Of a stretch of DNA of 64,000 nt, positions 81 through 10,705 are shown piece after piece (the first letter of the stretch is position 1; every line of letters starts with the position of its first letter). Below the pieces are notes generated by a model, which was given only the letters and a program-made list of their open reading frames with translations, had not been told where the DNA came from and did not search any database. The position numbers were made by a program, and so were the translations under genes. The DNA comes from a virus (Duplodnaviria; Caudoviricetes), in the IMG/VR virus record IMGVR_UViG_3300025735_000003, positions 1 through 64,000 of that record; one strand, written 5' to 3'.

Positions 81-905
81 ATGGGAAGTCGCGAGAGAGC
101 GTTTGTAGTACAAGTTGACGGTCAGGATATTGCCGTTCCCCGTAAACGTGTTCGTAAGGATAAGGTTGGTAAACCTGCTGTAAATCATAAGTATGATGAT
201 GAAAAAGAGTTTAATTCGTTGCACTTTAAGCCTATCGGAGAGGCGCAGACGCTCGGGGCACAGTATCTACAGGAAGGTCGTAAAATCGTGGCTCTACAAG
301 GCCCAGCCGGTGGTGGTAAGTCAATTTTAGCTGCATGGCACGCTGCAAACTTGCTGAAAGCTAAGTCTATCCACAAATTGTTCTTGGTTCGACCTTATGA
401 ATCTTGTGGGCGTACAATCGGTGCAGTTCCCGGCACGGAGGGCGAAAAACTTTCCGTAATTTTTACCAGTATCTTGGAGCATCTGACTAAGTTCCTTGGC
501 AAAACCCAATTGTCTTATATGCTTGAGAAAAAGGTAATCGAATTCAAAAGTGTTGAATGGATGCGTGGCTATAGTTTTGAGGATGAGGTATTCGTGCTGT
601 GTGAGGAGGTGCAAGGGTTTGATACTGACCTTATGCAGATGCTGACAACCCGTATTGGTGACGGCGCACAACTTTGTATGACGGGAGACTGGCGTCAAAA
701 AGACATCCGTAAAGAAACAGGTCTTAAATACTTGAGTGAAGTCGTAGAAGCTGCAAACAACACACCACCAGAGTTTCTTGATGACGAAGACATTCAGGAG
801 ATTAAGAACAACATTGGTTTTGTAAACTTTACGTTTGAGGATAGTGGACGTCGTAGTAAATTGACTAAGGCACTTGTTAAATTGTTTTACTTTGAGAAGG
901 GGTAG
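81..905 (+). CDS. phoH: PhoH-family ATPase
   Basis: Walker A GPAGGGKS; VRPY..G..IGAVPG..EKL; MRGYSF; EEVQ; LTTRIG; GDWRQKD motifs. Confidence 0.93.
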   Translation: MGSRERAFVVQVDGQDIAVPRKRVRKDKVGKPAVNHKYDDEKEFNSLHFKPIGEAQTLGAQYLQEGRKIVALQGPAGGGKSILAAWHAANLLKAKSIHKLFLVRPYESCGRTIGAVPGTEGEKLSVIFTSILEHLTKFLGKTQLSYMLEKKVIEFKSVEWMRGYSFEDEVFVLCEEVQGFDTDLMQMLTTRIGDGAQLCMTGDWRQKDIRKETGLKYLSEVVEAANNTPPEFLDDEDIQEIKNNIGFVNFTFEDSGRRSKLTKALVKLFYFEKG

Positions 906-913
906 GGAGTAAT

Positions 914-1681
914 TTGAAAGAAATTAATGGAGTAAGAGTTGCATCTAATGCCTTAGACTGGACAGGTCACGAAGTCGGAAGACTGGTTATCAAGAATGTT
1001 GAAGGTAGGCATGCAACTCGGAGGACTTTGGTATGGAATGCAGAATGTTCTTGTGGCAACACTACCAAAGTTACTTCCGCAGAGTTGTCAGCTAATGATA
1101 CGCAATCTTGTGGGTGTCTACACTTAGAAGTGATTGCTGTTACCAATAAGGCTTTTGCAGAGAAGTATTACACCCACGGAATGTCAGGAAGTCTTGAGCA
1201 GAAAGCTTGGAAAAGAATGAAAGGTCGTTGTACTAACCCAAATTCAAAAGAGTATGCAGTTTATTCGAAGATTGGTATTTCACAAGCATTTTCGGAAAGT
1301 TTTGTGAATTTCTACAATGACATTGGACCTATACCGGAAAACTTCAAAGGGCGTGTCTCAGTTGATCGAATAGAAAATTCCCTTGGTTACGTAGAGGGGA
1401 ATGTAAGATGGGCAAATGATGATATGCAAGCCAGAAACAAGGGTATGTATAACAGTAACAAGAGTGGTGTAACTGGGGTAAGATTGCACACTGGATCAGA
1501 TGGCAAAGATTATTGGTGTGCAAGTTGGTATCCTACAAGCGGAAAACAAAAGAGTAGGTACTTTTCAATACCTAAATATGGTGATGAATTAGCTTTCTTT
1601 GCTGCTTGTGAGTTTAGGTCGTTGATGATTGAACGTTTAAATCTAGTCGGTGCGGGTTACACAGAAAATCACGGTAAATAA
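914..1681 (+). CDS. HNH homing endonuclease with C-terminal AP2-like domain (family A)
   Basis: GRLVI..WNAECSCG..SCGC N-terminus; SVDRIENSLGYVEGNVRWA; NKSGVTGV; TTG start. Confidence 0.85.
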   Translation: MKEINGVRVASNALDWTGHEVGRLVIKNVEGRHATRRTLVWNAECSCGNTTKVTSAELSANDTQSCGCLHLEVIAVTNKAFAEKYYTHGMSGSLEQKAWKRMKGRCTNPNSKEYAVYSKIGISQAFSESFVNFYNDIGPIPENFKGRVSVDRIENSLGYVEGNVRWANDDMQARNKGMYNSNKSGVTGVRLHTGSDGKDYWCASWYPTSGKQKSRYFSIPKYGDELAFFAACEFRSLMIERLNLVGAGYTENHGK

Positions 1682-1690
1682 GGGGCTGGT

Positions 1691-2560
1691 ATGAACACAA
1701 CTAACAATGAAGATTTCATGTTTCCACAATTTAGTATGAACGGGTCTGTACGGGAACGAACTATCCCAACTAAAGTGTACACGCTTTACCTAGATGGTGA
1801 AATTGGAGCACCTTCTGAGTATAGGGATCACATGGAAGCTCTTGAATCTGCAAACGAGTGGGATGAAGTGCGGGTTATAATTTCAAGTGGAGGAGGTCGC
1901 CTAGACAGCGGTCTGATGCTGATTGACGGGATTAAAGCTTGTCGTGCCCCAGTAACGGCGTACATTCACGATATCTGCGGTTCTATGGCGACAGGTGTGG
2001 CCCTTGCGTGTCAAAACTGGCTTCTAGGGGATTTTGCATATTTCTTCGTGCACACAGCAAGCTGGGGAACATTTGGCAAAGACAGCGAAATTCGCAGTCA
2101 TGTGCAATTCATGGATAAACGAATTGATAAATTCCTCCACAGTATGTATGATGGTTTTATGTCTAGCGAAGAAATTTCTTTGGTCGGAAAAGGCCAAGAT
2201 TTGTGGATTGATTCGGAAGAACTGAAAGAGCGGCTGGAAGCTTACCAAGAATACCGGAACAATCAACCCTGTAACTGTGGCGATGAATCTTGCCCTCAGA
2301 ACCAACGATTGGCAGCAGAATCACAAAGGGATGACTTCGAAGATATTGAAGACTTCGATCTTGAAGCTCTTATTGCTGAAAAGGTAGCCGAAGGCATCGC
2401 CCTGCATGAGAAAAAGAAATTAGCTGCTGAGAAAAAGGCTTCCCGCGCAAAGAAACCAAACGCCAAAACCCAAGCTGTGATGGATGCTACAGATAAGGGC
2501 GAGGATTTGATCCACTTTGACAGTAAAGAAGCACTTTTTGAAGCTCTTGATCTAAAATAA
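1691..2560 (+). CDS. ClpP-like serine protease with acidic/basic linker and C-terminal DinJ/RelB-antitoxin-like segment
   Basis: YLDGEIG, ISSGGG, CGSMA (Ser), FVH (His), DLWID; the last 34 aa PNAKTQAVMDATDKGEDLIHFDSKEALFEALDLK match the DinJ C-terminal pattern. Confidence 0.85.
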   Translation: MNTTNNEDFMFPQFSMNGSVRERTIPTKVYTLYLDGEIGAPSEYRDHMEALESANEWDEVRVIISSGGGRLDSGLMLIDGIKACRAPVTAYIHDICGSMATGVALACQNWLLGDFAYFFVHTASWGTFGKDSEIRSHVQFMDKRIDKFLHSMYDGFMSSEEISLVGKGQDLWIDSEELKERLEAYQEYRNNQPCNCGDESCPQNQRLAAESQRDDFEDIEDFDLEALIAEKVAEGIALHEKKKLAAEKKASRAKKPNAKTQAVMDATDKGEDLIHFDSKEALFEALDLK

Positions 2561-2563
2561 TTG

Positions 2564-2601
2564 TTGCAATGAATACGTGGGAGGTTTACAATTACTCCCA
2601 C
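2564..2601 (+). promoter_or_regulatory. sigma70 promoter whose -10 lies in the loop of an inverted repeat
   Basis: TTGCAA (2564-69), 17 bp, TACAAT (2587-92); GTGGGAG 2577-83 / CTCCCAC 2595-2601. Confidence 0.7.
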
Positions 2602-2628: not shown

Positions 2629-4401
2629 ATGACTGACCAAGAAGAACTAGATATTTTGATGGAAAAGATTGCAGTGATTAAAGAGGAGAACTTTGGAGTA
2701 TGTCCTTCTGGTCAATATATGGATGGGCTTCTTGACAAGATGTGGGAACTCCAAGATAAAATTAAACTGGGAGGAGTAAAGTGATTTCATACGAAGAGAT
2801 TGAAGAGTTGCTCGCAGAACAACAAGCTGACCTTCTTGCTGCACAGGAAAAGTCAGAGAATTCTGAGAAGGAAGAATGAAAGAATTAGATTACGATGAAC
2901 GATATGAGGATTATTTAGCAATCGTTGAACACTGTTTCGATGTTGAGCCGATGTGGCATTGGGAAGTTGATCTAGAATCTAACTGTATTGATTAAGGAGA
3001 ATAAAATGCCACTGTACATGTTAGTTAAAGTAGATTTCGGACACCGTGAGAATATGGGGCTGTTTGATACACAAGCTAAAGCACTTGCATTGCAGACATC
3101 TCTTGAGCTAGAATTGTTTGATAGTGGAAGTTTAGCGGGTATTAGTTTTTATATTGAGGAGTGGTATACGAAGTGAGTATTGAAAAAGAAGTAACCCAAA
3201 AGTTTTATGACCATCTTGTAAAGCCTGAATTGTTTCTGGAAGAGATTTGGTTTGAAGATAAGTATGGAAATGTCCACTGGAATGGTGAAAGCAATATTGA
3301 TGATCTGGTAAATGGTGATGGGGACACATATTCTGGTGATATCCGTACAGAGGTAGTGGAGATAGATGGTTTTGCACTGTACACTTTAGGCAATGATTGT
3401 GGTGGAGAAAGCCAACTTATTTTTAAACTTAGTAATAAAATTAATCCAGAGGATTATGCATGAATCAGTTTGCACAATACGAAAATGAAGTAGAAGAAGA
3501 ACCAACCATTAGCGATTGGATTTCCTCAGACGCTTCAGGTGCTAGCAATATGCTTGGGGAGGATATTTATTCAGCAGTTGTAGAGGCACTTGGTTATGAG
3601 TAAGACTGAAGACCGTGCTAAAGGTTTCATCTTACAATGCATTGAGCAATGTAAACAGATTAAACCCGATCCTCAAATAACTGACTTTCACTGTCAACTT
3701 ATCATTCAGTTGACAGGCAAGGTATTTGAACTAGAGGAACAGATTAGGGAGTTGAAAAATGAGCAACAGCGCTTATAATTGTTTTCTTGATGCAGAACTT
3801 GAAAAGTATTACGAAGAATTAGAGGAACCACTAGACCTATGCTGGGATGATGAACCAGTAATAGAACCCAACACTGATTATGATAATTATGATAACTGGG
3901 ATGATATGCAATGACTGAAGAACCTATTGGTGCTTTGTGTGGTAAAGTAAATAAAATCATTCCTCATACCCCTTACTACTTAGCTGATGGGAATGTTGTT
4001 ATAAAGAAATGGAAAGAATCTTTCGTAGACCGAATGGGCAATAAGGCAGAGCTTATGAAAGTGTTGTTTAGGACGAAGAAGAATAAAGAGAATGTTGCAG
4101 TTATTCAAGTAAATTGGGAGTAGAGAATATGGGTGAGAAGAAAGATCCAAAAGTAACTATTGTAGACTACCAGACATTTACGGATTACCTGTTCAACCCA
4201 CCTTCAACCTTTTACATACAGAACGCTATGGGAGAATATTGGTTTGTGCATACTTCTTCAAGAGTTGCTGCACAAGAATATATAGATTCTGTTTATGGTA
4301 AAAATCGGTATACTGTTGTAGCTAGCAAACTTCAGAAGACAGTTAGTAAATCAGAGAGTGGAGAGTTGTCATGCCGAGGGACAGCAACAAGAAAGAAATA
4401 A
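2629..4401 (+). CDS. Run of about 10 small, mostly acidic hypothetical proteins (e.g. 2629-2784, 2781-2879, 3006-3176, 3173-3463, 3596-3778, 3911-4123, 4129-4401)
   Basis: Tightly packed or overlapping ORFs with AGGAG RBS and ATGA couplings. Confidence 0.7.
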
Positions 4402-4904
4402 TCAACAAAGAATACTCACTCTACATGGACATTGCCCTACGTGCAGCCCAAGACAGCCATGCAGTCAGAAAGAAAGTAGGCTCATGCATTCTAACTAATA
4501 GTCGTGGACTTTACGTTGGTTATAACGGAACACTTCCCGGAATGAGCAACACTTGTGAGGAGAGGATTTACAGTAATGGTGCAGGTGGTTGGATGGATGT
4601 CGAAGAGTTTAAAGAAATCTATCCTTACGAAGATGAGAATGGACATTACAAACTTAAAACTTTGGAAGGTGTAGTCCACTCGGAAATTAATTCGCTATGT
4701 AAGATGCTTAAGGAAGGTGTTAGTGCAGAGGGAGCTACAATCTTCGTAACATTGTCCCCATGTGCAACTTGCAGTTCAATTATTGCTTCTAGTGGGATTA
4801 GAAAGGTTGTATACTATGAGGAATATCGGGATACTAAGGGAATTGAGATGCTAGAAGACTTTGGTGTAGAAGTTGTACAATATGAGAAAGGAGAAAAATC
4901 ATGA
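4371..4904 (+). CDS. dCMP deaminase
   Basis: KKVGS, GYNG, VHSEIN, TLSPCATC Zn motifs. Confidence 0.92.
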   Translation: MPRDSNKKEIINKEYSLYMDIALRAAQDSHAVRKKVGSCILTNSRGLYVGYNGTLPGMSNTCEERIYSNGAGGWMDVEEFKEIYPYEDENGHYKLKTLEGVVHSEINSLCKMLKEGVSAEGATIFVTLSPCATCSSIIASSGIRKVVYYEEYRDTKGIEMLEDFGVEVVQYEKGEKS

Positions 4905-5962
4905 ATAAAGTTACATTATACGGCCTCAACAAAGCTGGAGGCTTTAAGATCTGGGCTATCGAAACAAAAGATGAAGAAATTCATATTGAGTTTGGTCAGG
5001 AGAATGGTAAGATTCAGCTCAAAATTGAATCTGTCAAAGGTAAGAACATTGGACGGAGTAACGAGACGACTCCTGTACAACAAGCTGAGTTGGAAGCTCT
5101 TAGTAAGATTGAGAAACAGAAAGATAAAGGTTATCGGCTGGACAAAGATGATCTACAAGACCTAGATATTCTCCCAATGTTGAGTGCAGATTACACAAAA
5201 CAAGGGCACCGTATTAAATACCCTTGCTGGGGTAGTGACAAGATGGACGGATGCCGTGCTCTGGCTATTTGTGAAAACGGTGCTGTAACTTTGAAGTCCC
5301 GAGGTGGTAAACTGTACGATGTAAAACATCTGCAAGGTCAGCTTGCCGCTGTTATGAAAGATGGTGAAGTGTGGGATGGTGAGTTGTTCATCAAAGGTAA
5401 GTATCTTGAAGAGATTGTTTCTGCTATCAAGAAGCCTAATCCACTGACACCTTATCTTGGATTTGTTATATTTGATATTGTGAATACTGAAGAATTTAGT
5501 TCCCGTATTGATACAATCAGAGCTATTCCTAAACGTTTGTTGGGTACTCAGATACAGGTTATTGAGTATCTTAACATTGAGTCTGAACAAGAGATGAAAG
5601 TTAAACACAGAGACTGTGTTGCTCGTGGTTTTGAAGGTTTGATGCTTCGCAATGGTAAGGGTGTCTATGAGTCTGGTAAACGTTCGGCAGACAGCCAGAA
5701 ATTCAAGACTTTCTTTGACTCAGAATTTAAGATTATTGATGTAATATCAGATAAAGATGGTGGTGCAATCTTTGTAGTTGCGAATACCTTTGCCGACAAT
5801 CAATTCAACGTTGTAGGTGGCTCACATGATCAACGTAAACAATGGTTGGCTGATAAAGACTCTCTGATTGGTAAATTCATTACTGTAAAATATCAAACCA
5901 CTTATAAAGACACTCAGATTCCACAATTCCCAACGTTCGTTACGTTTCGAGATTATGAATAA
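4901..5962 (+). CDS. ATP-dependent DNA ligase
   Basis: KMDGCR adenylation motif, DGELF, FDI, EGLMLR, K.K..FDSEF, P+FP terminus. Confidence 0.93.
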   Translation: MNKVTLYGLNKAGGFKIWAIETKDEEIHIEFGQENGKIQLKIESVKGKNIGRSNETTPVQQAELEALSKIEKQKDKGYRLDKDDLQDLDILPMLSADYTKQGHRIKYPCWGSDKMDGCRALAICENGAVTLKSRGGKLYDVKHLQGQLAAVMKDGEVWDGELFIKGKYLEEIVSAIKKPNPLTPYLGFVIFDIVNTEEFSSRIDTIRAIPKRLLGTQIQVIEYLNIESEQEMKVKHRDCVARGFEGLMLRNGKGVYESGKRSADSQKFKTFFDSEFKIIDVISDKDGGAIFVVANTFADNQFNVVGGSHDQRKQWLADKDSLIGKFITVKYQTTYKDTQIPQFPTFVTFRDYE

Positions 5963-6658: not shown

Positions 6659-7678
6659 ATGGAACAAGATAAACTGAAGAAACAATTGGAGCTGCTTCAT
6701 TCAGACTTGAAGCGCTGCAATAACAGGTGTAATCGTATTTCTAAAGCAATCGGCATTGAACAGAACGATTTAATTCAGTACGCAATGGACGAGACACAAG
6801 CTGTGCTGGATTATATTAGGATGTTGAAGGAGAAAGAAAATGCTAGTCAAACAGAGAATCAAGTGGGAATATGAATACCACTTTGGAAAAGAACCTTGGT
6901 TTCCAGCATTCTTAGATTACAAGAAGAATAGGGGTTCTGAAAGATTCAGACTGAACGCTGCTATGGAAGAGTTTTTCGAATATGTTATTTCATTAGAGGA
7001 AAAGCTAAAATGACACAAGAACAATACTATCTCCTAGAGAGGTTACGTACAAACCTCCTAGATGCAGCATCTGAGCTAGAACTTCTAGGAAAGCTTCCAA
7101 GGTTTGTGCAGAATATTGATTGGATGCTAGACGAGCTTGATGAGTATGTTAAATTGCAAAAGGAGTTGGATGATGAGTAATAGTGATAAATGGTTATTTG
7201 GGTTTATTACCCTGTGGATTATACTGTGTGCCGGTAAGCCTGACTTGATTGATGCACTGACTATACGTGTAATGGGTGATCAAGCTGTTTATGAAAAGAT
7301 GAAAGGAGAGAAAGAATGATCCACCTAGCGCCAATGACTGACGAACAACGCCAAGCTGTCAAAGACCAACGTATTGCTGACCAAGAATACGCACGAGAAA
7401 ACGTAACCTTAGATCGACCAGACGAACCTTACTGGAAAGCTCTTGCCTCCGAACAGGGTATCCGCATGCCACAGTGGCACATCTTAGGTACAGAGATTAA
7501 ATATATTCGAAGGGCTTGTAAAAAGTTAGGTGTTGATGTAAAAGAGTACACAGATTCTACGGGCTTTAAAACACTGAAAGAATTTGCCGAAACTAACCAT
7601 AAATTCAATGCTGTTGCTCAAGTCGGTCTTGTGCTAGAATACTGGGTAGATAAAGAGGGTAATTGCGGGATTAAATAG
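6659..7678 (+). CDS. Cluster of small hypothetical proteins (6659-6874, two unlisted ~55-aa ORFs, a small membrane ORF, 7316-7678)
   Basis: RBS-led, ATGA-coupled ORFs. Confidence 0.7.
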
Positions 7679-8940: not shown

Positions 8941-10496
8941 ATAATATTGTAAGTATTGAAGTAGAAATCAAACGAGAGCCTGAATATCCCGTATATTGCT
9001 TTGATATGTGGATGTTGTTTGATAATCAGAATGCTTATTTGGATTGGTCAGACAGTTTGGATAGGGTATGATTGAAATCCTTGGCTATGGGTTTGCTATT
9101 ATAATGTATTTCTTATTCTGTTACTTCATGATATTTAAAACGAGGTTGTGATGACAAGCCCTGAACGCTGCTCATGTGGAACTAGAGAGAAGAATAAGTG
9201 TAATAAAGAATCCACACCTATTGATGGTGTAAGGTATGGTAAAATGTGCGTAAAGGAAGTGAAAGAGGAGAGTAAGAAGGATGTTTGAATTAGATTACCA
9301 ACTACCACCAGAGTATAAAAGCTTAGAGTATCTGCACACAAAACTTGGTGATGTACAGGTTGTGGAGTGTGTTTGTATCATCTGGAATGCCATGCACAAA
9401 GGGAATACACTCCGTGTAAAGAGTGCAGATGATAAGACAGGAATTATTATGATAACTGGTGTTTGTGATGACACACGAGAGGTTATTAAGATTGGTAAGT
9501 GGCTAACTACGTTTGCTTTGGTGCAGATTAGGTATGAGAGGACTATTTTTAGTGTGGAGATTTGAATGGACCAAACAATTGAAGACAGAATGCAGGCTGT
9601 AGAGATTGAGTTGAAAGAGATTAGGAAAGAATTGGAGGGGAGTCTGGCGAGGTATAGTCCACATTACCCAGACGAGAACAGACTGATCAACGATCGTGAA
9701 TATTGCAGTCGGTGGATTAGAGGTGAGATTAAAGCAAGTTCTGAGTGGTTCATGAAGGAGATTTATAAATGAAAGCATATCAAGTGGTGTTGGTTGATGG
9801 TGATGGAGCTAGCTTTGAAGAGTTCGTAACTCCTAAAGTGTTTATGGATAAGGTAAAGGCTGAAGCTTACAAACAGTTCTTTATTGACGAGGATGCTGGT
9901 TGGTGGAAAGTGTATGTTAAGGAAGTGGAGTTGGTAGAATGAAACCAATAATCCTTAAAACACCAGAAGGGCTATATGTCTATGAAATCCCTATTGAGAA
10001 TGAACCAGAAGATGGGGCATCTGACGAGGTTTGGTGGAGATGGGGATAGCTACTACGTAGCGATAGCAGCTTGTGGGGTTGGTAGTAGTCCTGTAGAGGC
10101 TTATAATAATTGGGTGAAGGATTGGGAGGATAATGTGTGATGAAAGTTAGTACGTTGGCTTGCCTATGCTTTGGTGCATGGATCAGTTTAATGTGGACAA
10201 ACGGATAAGATAAAAGAGTTGTCTGCTAAAGTTCAAGTACTGGAATCAATTAATAAGGAGAAGATGTGATGAGTGATTTCAAAAGCTGGTGCGAAGTAGC
10301 TGAATATCTATTAGCTAACAAATGGAACTCTGTAGATGTAGATAGCACATGGTCATTCACAGAGGATAAGAGTTGGAGTAAGGTATATCCTCCTGAAGAT
10401 GCCAGTGACTATGAGCACTATAAGAATATTGGAGATGCGATAGAAGAGATGAAGTATTTCTGTGATGGTGACTTAGGGAGTGTTAGTAGAGAATGA
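8937..10496 (+). CDS. Cluster of small hypothetical proteins (incl. 9281-9565, 9566-9772, 9770-9942, 10266-10496; two look frameshifted)
   Basis: Packed ORFs with RBS; see findings. Confidence 0.6.
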
Positions 10497-10705
10497 ACCT
10501 TAAACCAGAAGACTTAGAAATCAGCACATACCCACCCTATAAAACTGGTGGACAACATGTTGGGCTTACTCACAGCGGTGTGCTGATTGCGCATATTCCT
10601 ACGGGGCTTGGTGTTGTGTCCGTTAGTGAGAGGAGTCAGTATAGGAATAAAGAGAGGGCTTTGACAATGTTGGAAATATTGGTTGAATTGGAGGAAGATG
10701 AATGA
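10493..10705 (+). CDS. Stand-alone peptide chain release factor GGQ domain (RF-1 domain, 70 aa)
   Basis: LKPEDLEISTY...GGQHV...SGVLIAHIPTGLGV.S.SERSQYRNKERALTML follows the RF1/RF2 domain-3 pattern (DLRIDT..GGQHVN..SAVRITHLPTG....QDERSQHKNK..A...L). Confidence 0.85.
   Translation: MNLKPEDLEISTYPPYKTGGQHVGLTHSGVLIAHIPTGLGVVSVSERSQYRNKERALTMLEILVELEEDE

Follow-up and report, generated by a model that had tools for sequence, protein, structure and literature searches.

Why should a ClpP-like protease gene of a phage end in what resembles the toxin-binding part of a bacterial antitoxin? The question is raised by an open reading frame (ORF), 1691–2560, in the window, by which is meant here the whole stretch of 64,000 nucleotides that was analysed (positions 1–64,000 of the IMG/VR record IMGVR_UViG_3300025735_000003; Duplodnaviria, Caudoviricetes). 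The source record is a complete 85.6-kb virus genome with direct terminal repeats. A first-pass annotation, made from the sequence alone, had described the product as a ClpP-like protease followed by a Cys motif, an acidic then basic linker and a terminal tip, and the ORF and all of these parts are as described (Table 1). It had also proposed that the tip is a captured toxin-binding end of a RelB/DinJ antitoxin, fused to the protease. The comparisons given below bear out this proposal, and they suggest that the protein may act as a substitute antitoxin during infection.

The C-terminus of Escherichia coli DinJ, which the first-pass annotation had quoted letter-perfect, does align with the tip without gaps, but this alignment is weak when taken alone (8/35 identities or 23%, E 0.24 for one comparison). 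It is with other RelB/DinJ members that the similarity goes far beyond chance. A search with the tip of 401 genomes of the genus Pseudomonas gave two matches, with 63% and 59% identity over 35 amino acids (E 3.7e-8 and 4.3e-8 per genome; an E of ~4e-8 per genome becomes ~1.5e-5 when corrected for the 401 genomes). Both are proteins of 86 amino acids that are recognized by the Pfam RelB family (PF04221) with E ~1e-18, and they have the same C-terminal end position as the tip. Each antitoxin gene lies 33–43 bp from a gene of the YafQ family (PF15738, YafQ_toxin) that scores above the Pfam cut-off. At the DNA level, an estimate by eye over the initial 50 aligned bases gives ~70% identity to these Pseudomonas antitoxin genes, which argues that the capture was not very recent.

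A blind tblastn search of 7.3 Gb of plasmids with the 37-residue tip gave only four matches with at least 89% query coverage. One is from a C. difficile plasmid, one from a Pseudomonas silesiensis plasmid, and the other two are from nearly identical records of the same Pseudorhizobium plasmid. Those from C. difficile and Pseudorhizobium carry RelB/DinJ antitoxin annotations and adjoin YafQ and RelE/StbE toxin genes; the P. silesiensis match is unannotated in its record, and its protein carries PF04221 and NCBI's RelB/DinJ name. The plasmid antitoxins are 46–53% identical to the tip, three of them 46–49%, and the alignments reach the last or second-to-last antitoxin residue. As a control, the 40-residue tails of two relatives of the phage protease (P0007 and P0013) were run against the same plasmid database and gave no match.

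A set of 151 gammaproteobacterial genomes supplied 28 antitoxins, with Pfam RelB as the sole criterion of choice so as to avoid circularity, and an independent DinJ profile made from these was run unfiltered against the window in six-frame translation (1,384 segments in all). The tip comes first (E 2.1e-4 when the C-terminal columns are used, 5e-3 for the full model), with the next matches at 0.07 and 0.44. None of 20,000 shuffles reaches the score of the tip, 23.1 bits, and the best shuffle has 17.0. The second-best match to the C-terminal profile, at E 0.07, is to a 56-amino-acid ORF at 7010–7180 (+); it covers the distal half of the motif only and is probably a chance match.

One of the two Pseudomonas antitoxins matches the solved structure of E. 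coli DinJ (4Q2U) with E 1.8e-11. The tip is thereby connected, by transitivity, with a structure where the segment wraps YafQ. DinJ wraps the toxin with its C-terminus, and no complex forms once the last nine to ten residues are deleted (PMC12301738); the alignment of the tip runs through this terminal helix. It has the same C-terminal pattern, PN..T, a central Gly and a terminal LF..L helix, as E. coli DinJ (4Q2U/4ML0) and the two Pseudomonas antitoxins (L058 and L059). An AlphaFold2 model gives the tip two short helices at residues 260–266 and 279–287 and a predicted local distance difference test (pLDDT) score of 50–57, as expected for a modelled antitoxin end that folds on its partner. A structure search of the ESM Atlas places a RelB/DinJ cluster first, and template-modelling (TM) scores over 35 residues carry little meaning. 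Judged by sequence, then, the tip and the C-terminal segment with which RelB/DinJ antitoxins neutralise their toxins are homologous. Only the last ~35 residues of the antitoxins align, and the ribbon-helix-helix half is absent, as had been noticed at the outset. With no ribbon-helix-helix, no operon and no match to a family profile, the protein falls outside the RelB/DinJ family as defined.

What might such a tip do on a protease? The tip plausibly works like the toxin-neutralising half of the RelB/DinJ family, and the whole protein would then be a surrogate antitoxin, tethered to a ClpP-fold protease and acting against the toxin–antitoxin (TA) defence of the host. We hold this reading at about an even balance of confidence. 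When infection stops host gene expression, a labile host antitoxin would decay and an mRNA interferase of the YafQ/RelE type would be freed. The phage protein could supply substitute antitoxin ends that wrap around this toxin, much as DinJ does with YafQ, so that it stays away from the ribosome. Rings are the normal assembly of ClpP-fold proteins, and one particle could therefore carry 7–14 tips; a toxin caught by them may also be degraded by the protease to which they are tethered. That the protein forms oligomers, that it binds a toxin and neutralises or degrades it, and that the phage gains from this are steps that we infer. Searches of the complete 85.6-kb phage genome for YafQ, ParE/RelE and RelB (PF15738, PF05016 and a YafQ alignment) gave no match; thus any toxin partner would be host-encoded.

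Several findings weigh against this reading, and they are brought together here with the explanations that they favour. Scans of the 34-, 46- and 97-residue tails with Pfam and NCBIfam, with E allowed to reach 10, show no RelB/DinJ match; within the same limit PF04221 itself matches neither the whole protein nor its tail nor any part of the genome. A phmmer search of PDB sequences with the tail gave only an unrelated match (E 1.7), and one of 1.84 billion representatives with the 37-residue tip gave nothing at E up to 0.001. No candidate came from a word-indexed homologue search of residues 246–289 among shorter proteins, and a search of genome contigs with a smaller tip alignment found nothing. 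Matches of the tail to TetR_N and Sororin_C are sub-threshold noise, and weak matches of PF25734 ('RelB_like_antitoxin') in the linker helix of the relatives P0006 and P0013 (E 0.06 and 0.7) are insignificant. Two unpublished genomes (G142 and G522) were among the sets searched, and nothing claimed here depends on them.

Are the tip and the antitoxin ends, then, two short amphipathic peptides that resemble each other by chance? The database searches that came back empty would fit this, as would the low identity to E. coli DinJ. However, the tip is too short a query for a search space of 1.84 billion proteins. The Pfam RelB model covers only profile positions 2–62 of 82 on one of the Pseudomonas antitoxins and can reach position 80 on other members; its silence on the tip therefore says little. 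The first-pass annotation had named the lack of a RelB/DinJ profile match as something that would count against it. Such a match is indeed lacking with Pfam and NCBIfam, where the outcome is uninformative, but a DinJ profile that includes the C-terminus does match the tip. The corrected significance in Pseudomonas, the rank and the shuffles with the independent profile, the matches that all end at the antitoxins' own C-termini, and the two control tails that find nothing in the same database leave chance resemblance effectively refuted.

The distribution of the tip raises a different doubt. The first-pass annotation had asked whether ClpP orthologues in related phages lack the tail, and they do: the tip is absent from all 43 ClpP-like relatives, none of which scores above 2 bits with the DinJ profile. 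A 98%-identical relative (L003–L006) lacks 69 nucleotides in frame (23 codons, at about 2460–2528), and its protein ends in APFPETDVK where that of the window has ALFEALDLK. This shows the tip to be dispensable in some settings. The same tip is found again in a phage (L012) from metagenome 3300005288, on a 279-residue protein whose protease domain is only 31% identical to that of the window; this metagenome also contains one contig with the short variant. Among IMG/VR and JGI metagenome contigs no copy of the tip was found besides these two, and among 50,697 deposited phage records the only match lies in a 4-kb record that carries no annotation (identity 52.9%, E 0.1). The tip is thus known from two phage genomes only.

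The window and L012 are nearly the same from residue 214 to the stop codon and on into the promoter-like intergenic region. Over the 39 linker codons at residues 214–252 there are 14 synonymous and no non-synonymous changes, which points to purifying selection on the linker. Over the 37 codons of the tip, nucleotide identity is ~99% and there is one change, A258T. The tip thus looks to be a still more recent unit of exchange than the linker, and by these comparisons it is accessory and mobile and no ordinary conserved structural element of the family.

An accessory and rare tip might be a neutral or decaying passenger, that is, an antitoxin end gained by illegitimate recombination at a fast-evolving, tolerant C-terminus, with no function, in which case the short variant represents erosion. 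The tips of the relatives vary widely in length and sequence, and the end left in the 98%-identical phage has two prolines, both of which would fit. But the 34-residue motif is complete and retains the terminal helix on which complex formation by DinJ depends, and the presence of one nearly unchanged tip on two such different proteases implies transfer and retention. That one lineage has lost it would be just as typical of an anti-defence gene. The passenger is a real but minor possibility.

The nature of the partner is the other matter that counts against a surrogate antitoxin. The host is inferred from relatives only. In the two Pseudomonas loci with the closest antitoxins (L058 and L059), the antitoxin gene and the YafQ-family gene are tail to tail and form no operon, and the YafQ-like proteins have all three conserved His residues replaced (by N, R/K and V). 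By sequence this pair may be non-canonical or inactivated, and the natural partner of the tip may not be a classical RNase toxin. A further group of DinJ-like antitoxins, P0048, is the closest Pseudomonas subfamily in the plasmid search and has no adjacent toxin; its gene neighbourhood is conserved, with no RelE/YafQ-type gene alongside, and its members are apparent orphan antitoxins. A serine-recombinase-like ORF, identified by reading its sequence, adjoins the L058 copy.

Such neighbours would suit a tip that binds a YafQ-fold host protein other than a defence toxin, for example a His-less YafQ-like protein, whether to deliver a ribosome-associated factor to the protease or to localise the protease. 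Loss of the histidines is no proof of lost toxicity, however, since RelE itself functions without catalytic histidines, and other relatives of the tip adjoin canonical YafQ or RelE toxins. A non-defence partner seems quite unlikely on this evidence.

A third role for the tip does not involve a toxin directly. Antitoxins are protease-labile, and antitoxin ends are substrates of host Lon and ClpXP. Phage T7 provides a precedent in Gp4.5, which blocks Lon and so prevents TA activation. The tip, which is predicted to be flexible, could by analogy be a decoy, i.e. a competitive Lon/ClpXP substrate that spares host antitoxins, or a degron that sets the half-life of the phage protein. But the features conserved in the tip belong to the toxin-binding surface (PMC12301738), and nothing marks this segment as the degron in DinJ, which makes a decoy or degron role most unlikely.

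Table 1. Features of the protease gene, its surroundings and the bacterial antitoxin loci compared with it (window positions unless a locus is named)
Feature	Position	Strand	Details
PhoH-like gene	81-905	+	5' of protease gene
HNH/AP2 endonuclease ORF	914-1681	+	between PhoH and ClpP-like genes
Whole gene: ClpP-like protease, C-terminal extension and DinJ-type tip	1691..2560	+	single open frame, 289 amino acids plus stop
ClpP-fold serine protease domain	1769..2266	+	residues ~27-192
Ser98, predicted nucleophile	1982..1984	+	invariant in 21 and in 43 aligned relatives
His121, predicted general base	2051..2053	+	invariant in 21 and in 43 aligned relatives
Asp170, predicted to complete the triad	2198..2200	+	invariant in 21 closest relatives; Glu in distant L012 protein
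Cys motif CNCGDESC (C194, C196, C201)	2270..2293	+	residues 194-201; pLDDT ~80
Linker arm: acidic stretch, long amphipathic helix (~224-250), basic patch	2330..2455	+	residues 214-255
DinJ/RelB-type toxin-binding tip (predicted), no ribbon-helix-helix	2456..2557	+	residues 256-289, 34 amino acids, starts P256
Promoter-like site TTGCAA, 17 nucleotides, TACAAT	2564..2592	+	consensus scan, 9/12 matches; directly after stop codon
dCMP deaminase, after small ORFs	4371-4904		3' of protease gene
DNA ligase	4901-5962		3' of protease gene
DinJ-family antitoxin and YafQ-family gene pair	L058:1180-1758		antitoxin 1498-1758, YafQ-family gene 1192-1461; Pseudomonas genome
DinJ-family antitoxin and YafQ-family gene pair	L059:1179-1755		antitoxin 1495-1755, YafQ-family gene 1179-1448; Pseudomonas genome
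P0048-group DinJ-like antitoxins	L008:845-1108, L013:1420-1794, L054:2001-2273		two large Pseudomonas plasmids (megaplasmids) and metagenome contigs

The body to which the tip is attached is well defined. PF00574 matches residues 47–153 with 31.3 bits against a cut-off of 20.2 (E 2.4e-7; 32 bits in the genome scan), and the best PHROG is phrog_1827, 'ATP-dependent protease' (E 8.8e-52). The AlphaFold2 model has a pLDDT above 90 over residues 29–190, and a Foldseek search of the PDB puts nothing but ClpP structures at the top (probability 1.0, with a TM by target of 0.65–0.73). Ser98 is the residue that we take to be the ClpP active-site serine, by comparison of motifs with ClpP. With Ser98 and His121 invariant in the aligned relatives, the protease looks to be active. 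Bacterial ClpP (S14) shares the fold and the Ser-His-Asp arrangement; identity to it is only 14–23%, and the phage protein differs in having a C-terminal extension of ~100 residues. The best NCBIfam score for orthology to cellular ClpP is 20.3 bits against equivalog/subfamily cut-offs of 228–361, so that the protein belongs to a phage ClpP-related family and is no orthologue of cellular ClpP.

The protein might instead be a head-maturation protease, whose C-terminal arm would target it to the procapsid and whose tip would belong to a tail that binds capsid or scaffold. Weaker PHROG matches to 'head maturation protease' extend to residue 265, the curated NCBIfam head-maturation family (NF045542, Clp_rel_HeadMat) gives 58.2 bits, no S77 or S78 prohead protease was found in the genome scan, and the ORF is the sole ClpP-like gene in the genome. 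The NF045542 score is, however, far under the cut-off of 120, and the best family is the phrog_1827 protease. The gene lies in an early, metabolic gene row on the + strand, among the PhoH, dCMP deaminase and ligase genes and not among head genes, whereas the structural genes identified in the window are those of a tail module at 53–62 kb on the − strand. Moreover, a capsid-targeting tail would not be lost in a 98%-identical phage, nor would it resemble a bacterial antitoxin. A role in head maturation is so improbable that it hardly competes with the others.

Between the protease domain and the tip lies an extension with a history of its own. Relatives with long tails, and L012, retain the three-Cys motif, and the short-tailed relatives P0017–P0021 lack it. 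In the AlphaFold2 model the motif is followed by a helix at residues 202–213 and then by the linker helix at 224–250, with a pLDDT of 84–93. Both the Cys motif and the linker arm are found in Pseudomonas phage vB_PsaM_M1, which among cultured phages is the nearest relative, and in ~15 metagenomic relatives. Most relatives have the linker arm, of which there are at least two sequence types, whereas the last 20–35 residues are different in each lineage and some relatives are without any extension. In alignment columns ~250–300, the linker arm of P0009, P0010, P0014 and P0016 is unrelated in sequence to the rest. The presence of two or more unrelated linker types among close relatives indicates that the whole C-terminal extension is mosaic, beyond the tip alone.

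Perhaps the family as a whole consists of modular 'bait-and-degrade' ring proteases, which carry exchangeable bait peptides from host proteins on long C-terminal arms. The DinJ-type tip would then bring defence toxins of the RelE/YafQ type to the protease for destruction, and the variable tips of other members would bait other host targets. This generalization is unlikely as it stands; the negative-control tails of P0007 and P0013 lend no support yet to other tips as mimics of host proteins.

The ORF starts with ATG, with GGGGCTGG upstream. Beyond the stop codon, an inverted repeat GTGGGAG...CTCCCAC (within 2564–2610) overlaps the promoter-like site. This stretch is nearly identical in the window, in L003/L004 and in L012, phages that are otherwise diverged, and it forms the 3' boundary of the exchanged mosaic block. 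On the 5' side, the HNH/AP2 ORF probably encodes a mobile homing endonuclease. In phage M1 no gene stands at this position, and its PhoH and protease genes overlap; ORF calls at the position differ in relatives L005 and L006.

A further ORF in the window, 10493–10705 (+), encodes a stand-alone GGQ (release-factor RF-1) domain of 70 amino acids (PF00472, E 2.7e-16, above the cut-off). An RF-1 match is absent from phage M1, from phage ventosus and from the 35-kb contig (~40% complete) that bears the same tip. A functional link between the tip and the GGQ domain was considered and set aside: the GGQ ORF is real, but co-occurrence could not be shown in these three.

How does the surrogate antitoxin proposed here compare with known systems? 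Its nearest relatives as a protease are in the phrog_1827 family, which includes Otagovirus-type Pseudomonas phages. The protein of vB_PsaM_M1 (UZS00893.1, 262 amino acids) has a protease domain 78.9% identical to that of the window and is also encoded beside PhoH. M1 and all other relatives end differently from the window protein, and many, among them that of phage ventosus (193 amino acids), have no extension. Unlike RelB/DinJ antitoxins, the tip is the end of a 289-residue protease in a lytic-type phage, and it has no adjacent toxin gene.

The logic of a phage-borne antitoxin substitute that stops a TA defence from firing has precedents. T4 Dmd is a phage-borne stand-in for a host antitoxin. 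The AdfA and DarG-like proteins are phage antitoxin mimics directed against DarTG, and represent established counter-defence (PMC11825919, PMC11481870). All of these are free-standing, either whole antitoxin-like enzymes or unrelated inhibitors, whereas the window protein has the toxin-binding peptide only, carried on a protease, and its target would be an mRNA interferase of the RelE/YafQ type. TA modules of the RelE/ParE superfamily are increasingly regarded as anti-phage defences (PMC11980606). A full-text search of the literature found no description of a RelB/DinJ toxin-binding peptide fused to a protease.

Known phage countermeasures to TA systems are few, and consist of free-standing inhibitors or whole antitoxin-like enzymes. 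The fusion probably represents a new way for a phage to disarm the TA defence of its host, and it would be a minimal solution, in which a 34-residue antitoxin end is kept, the repressor domain is dropped, and the remainder is grafted on a protease that is probably multimeric. If this is true, it would be the first counter-defence against interferases of the DinJ/YafQ type, and a natural case in which a bait peptide serves for targeted capture and possibly for degradation. It would also give the first clue to the role of the ClpP-like proteases that are found beside PhoH in many Pseudomonas phages.

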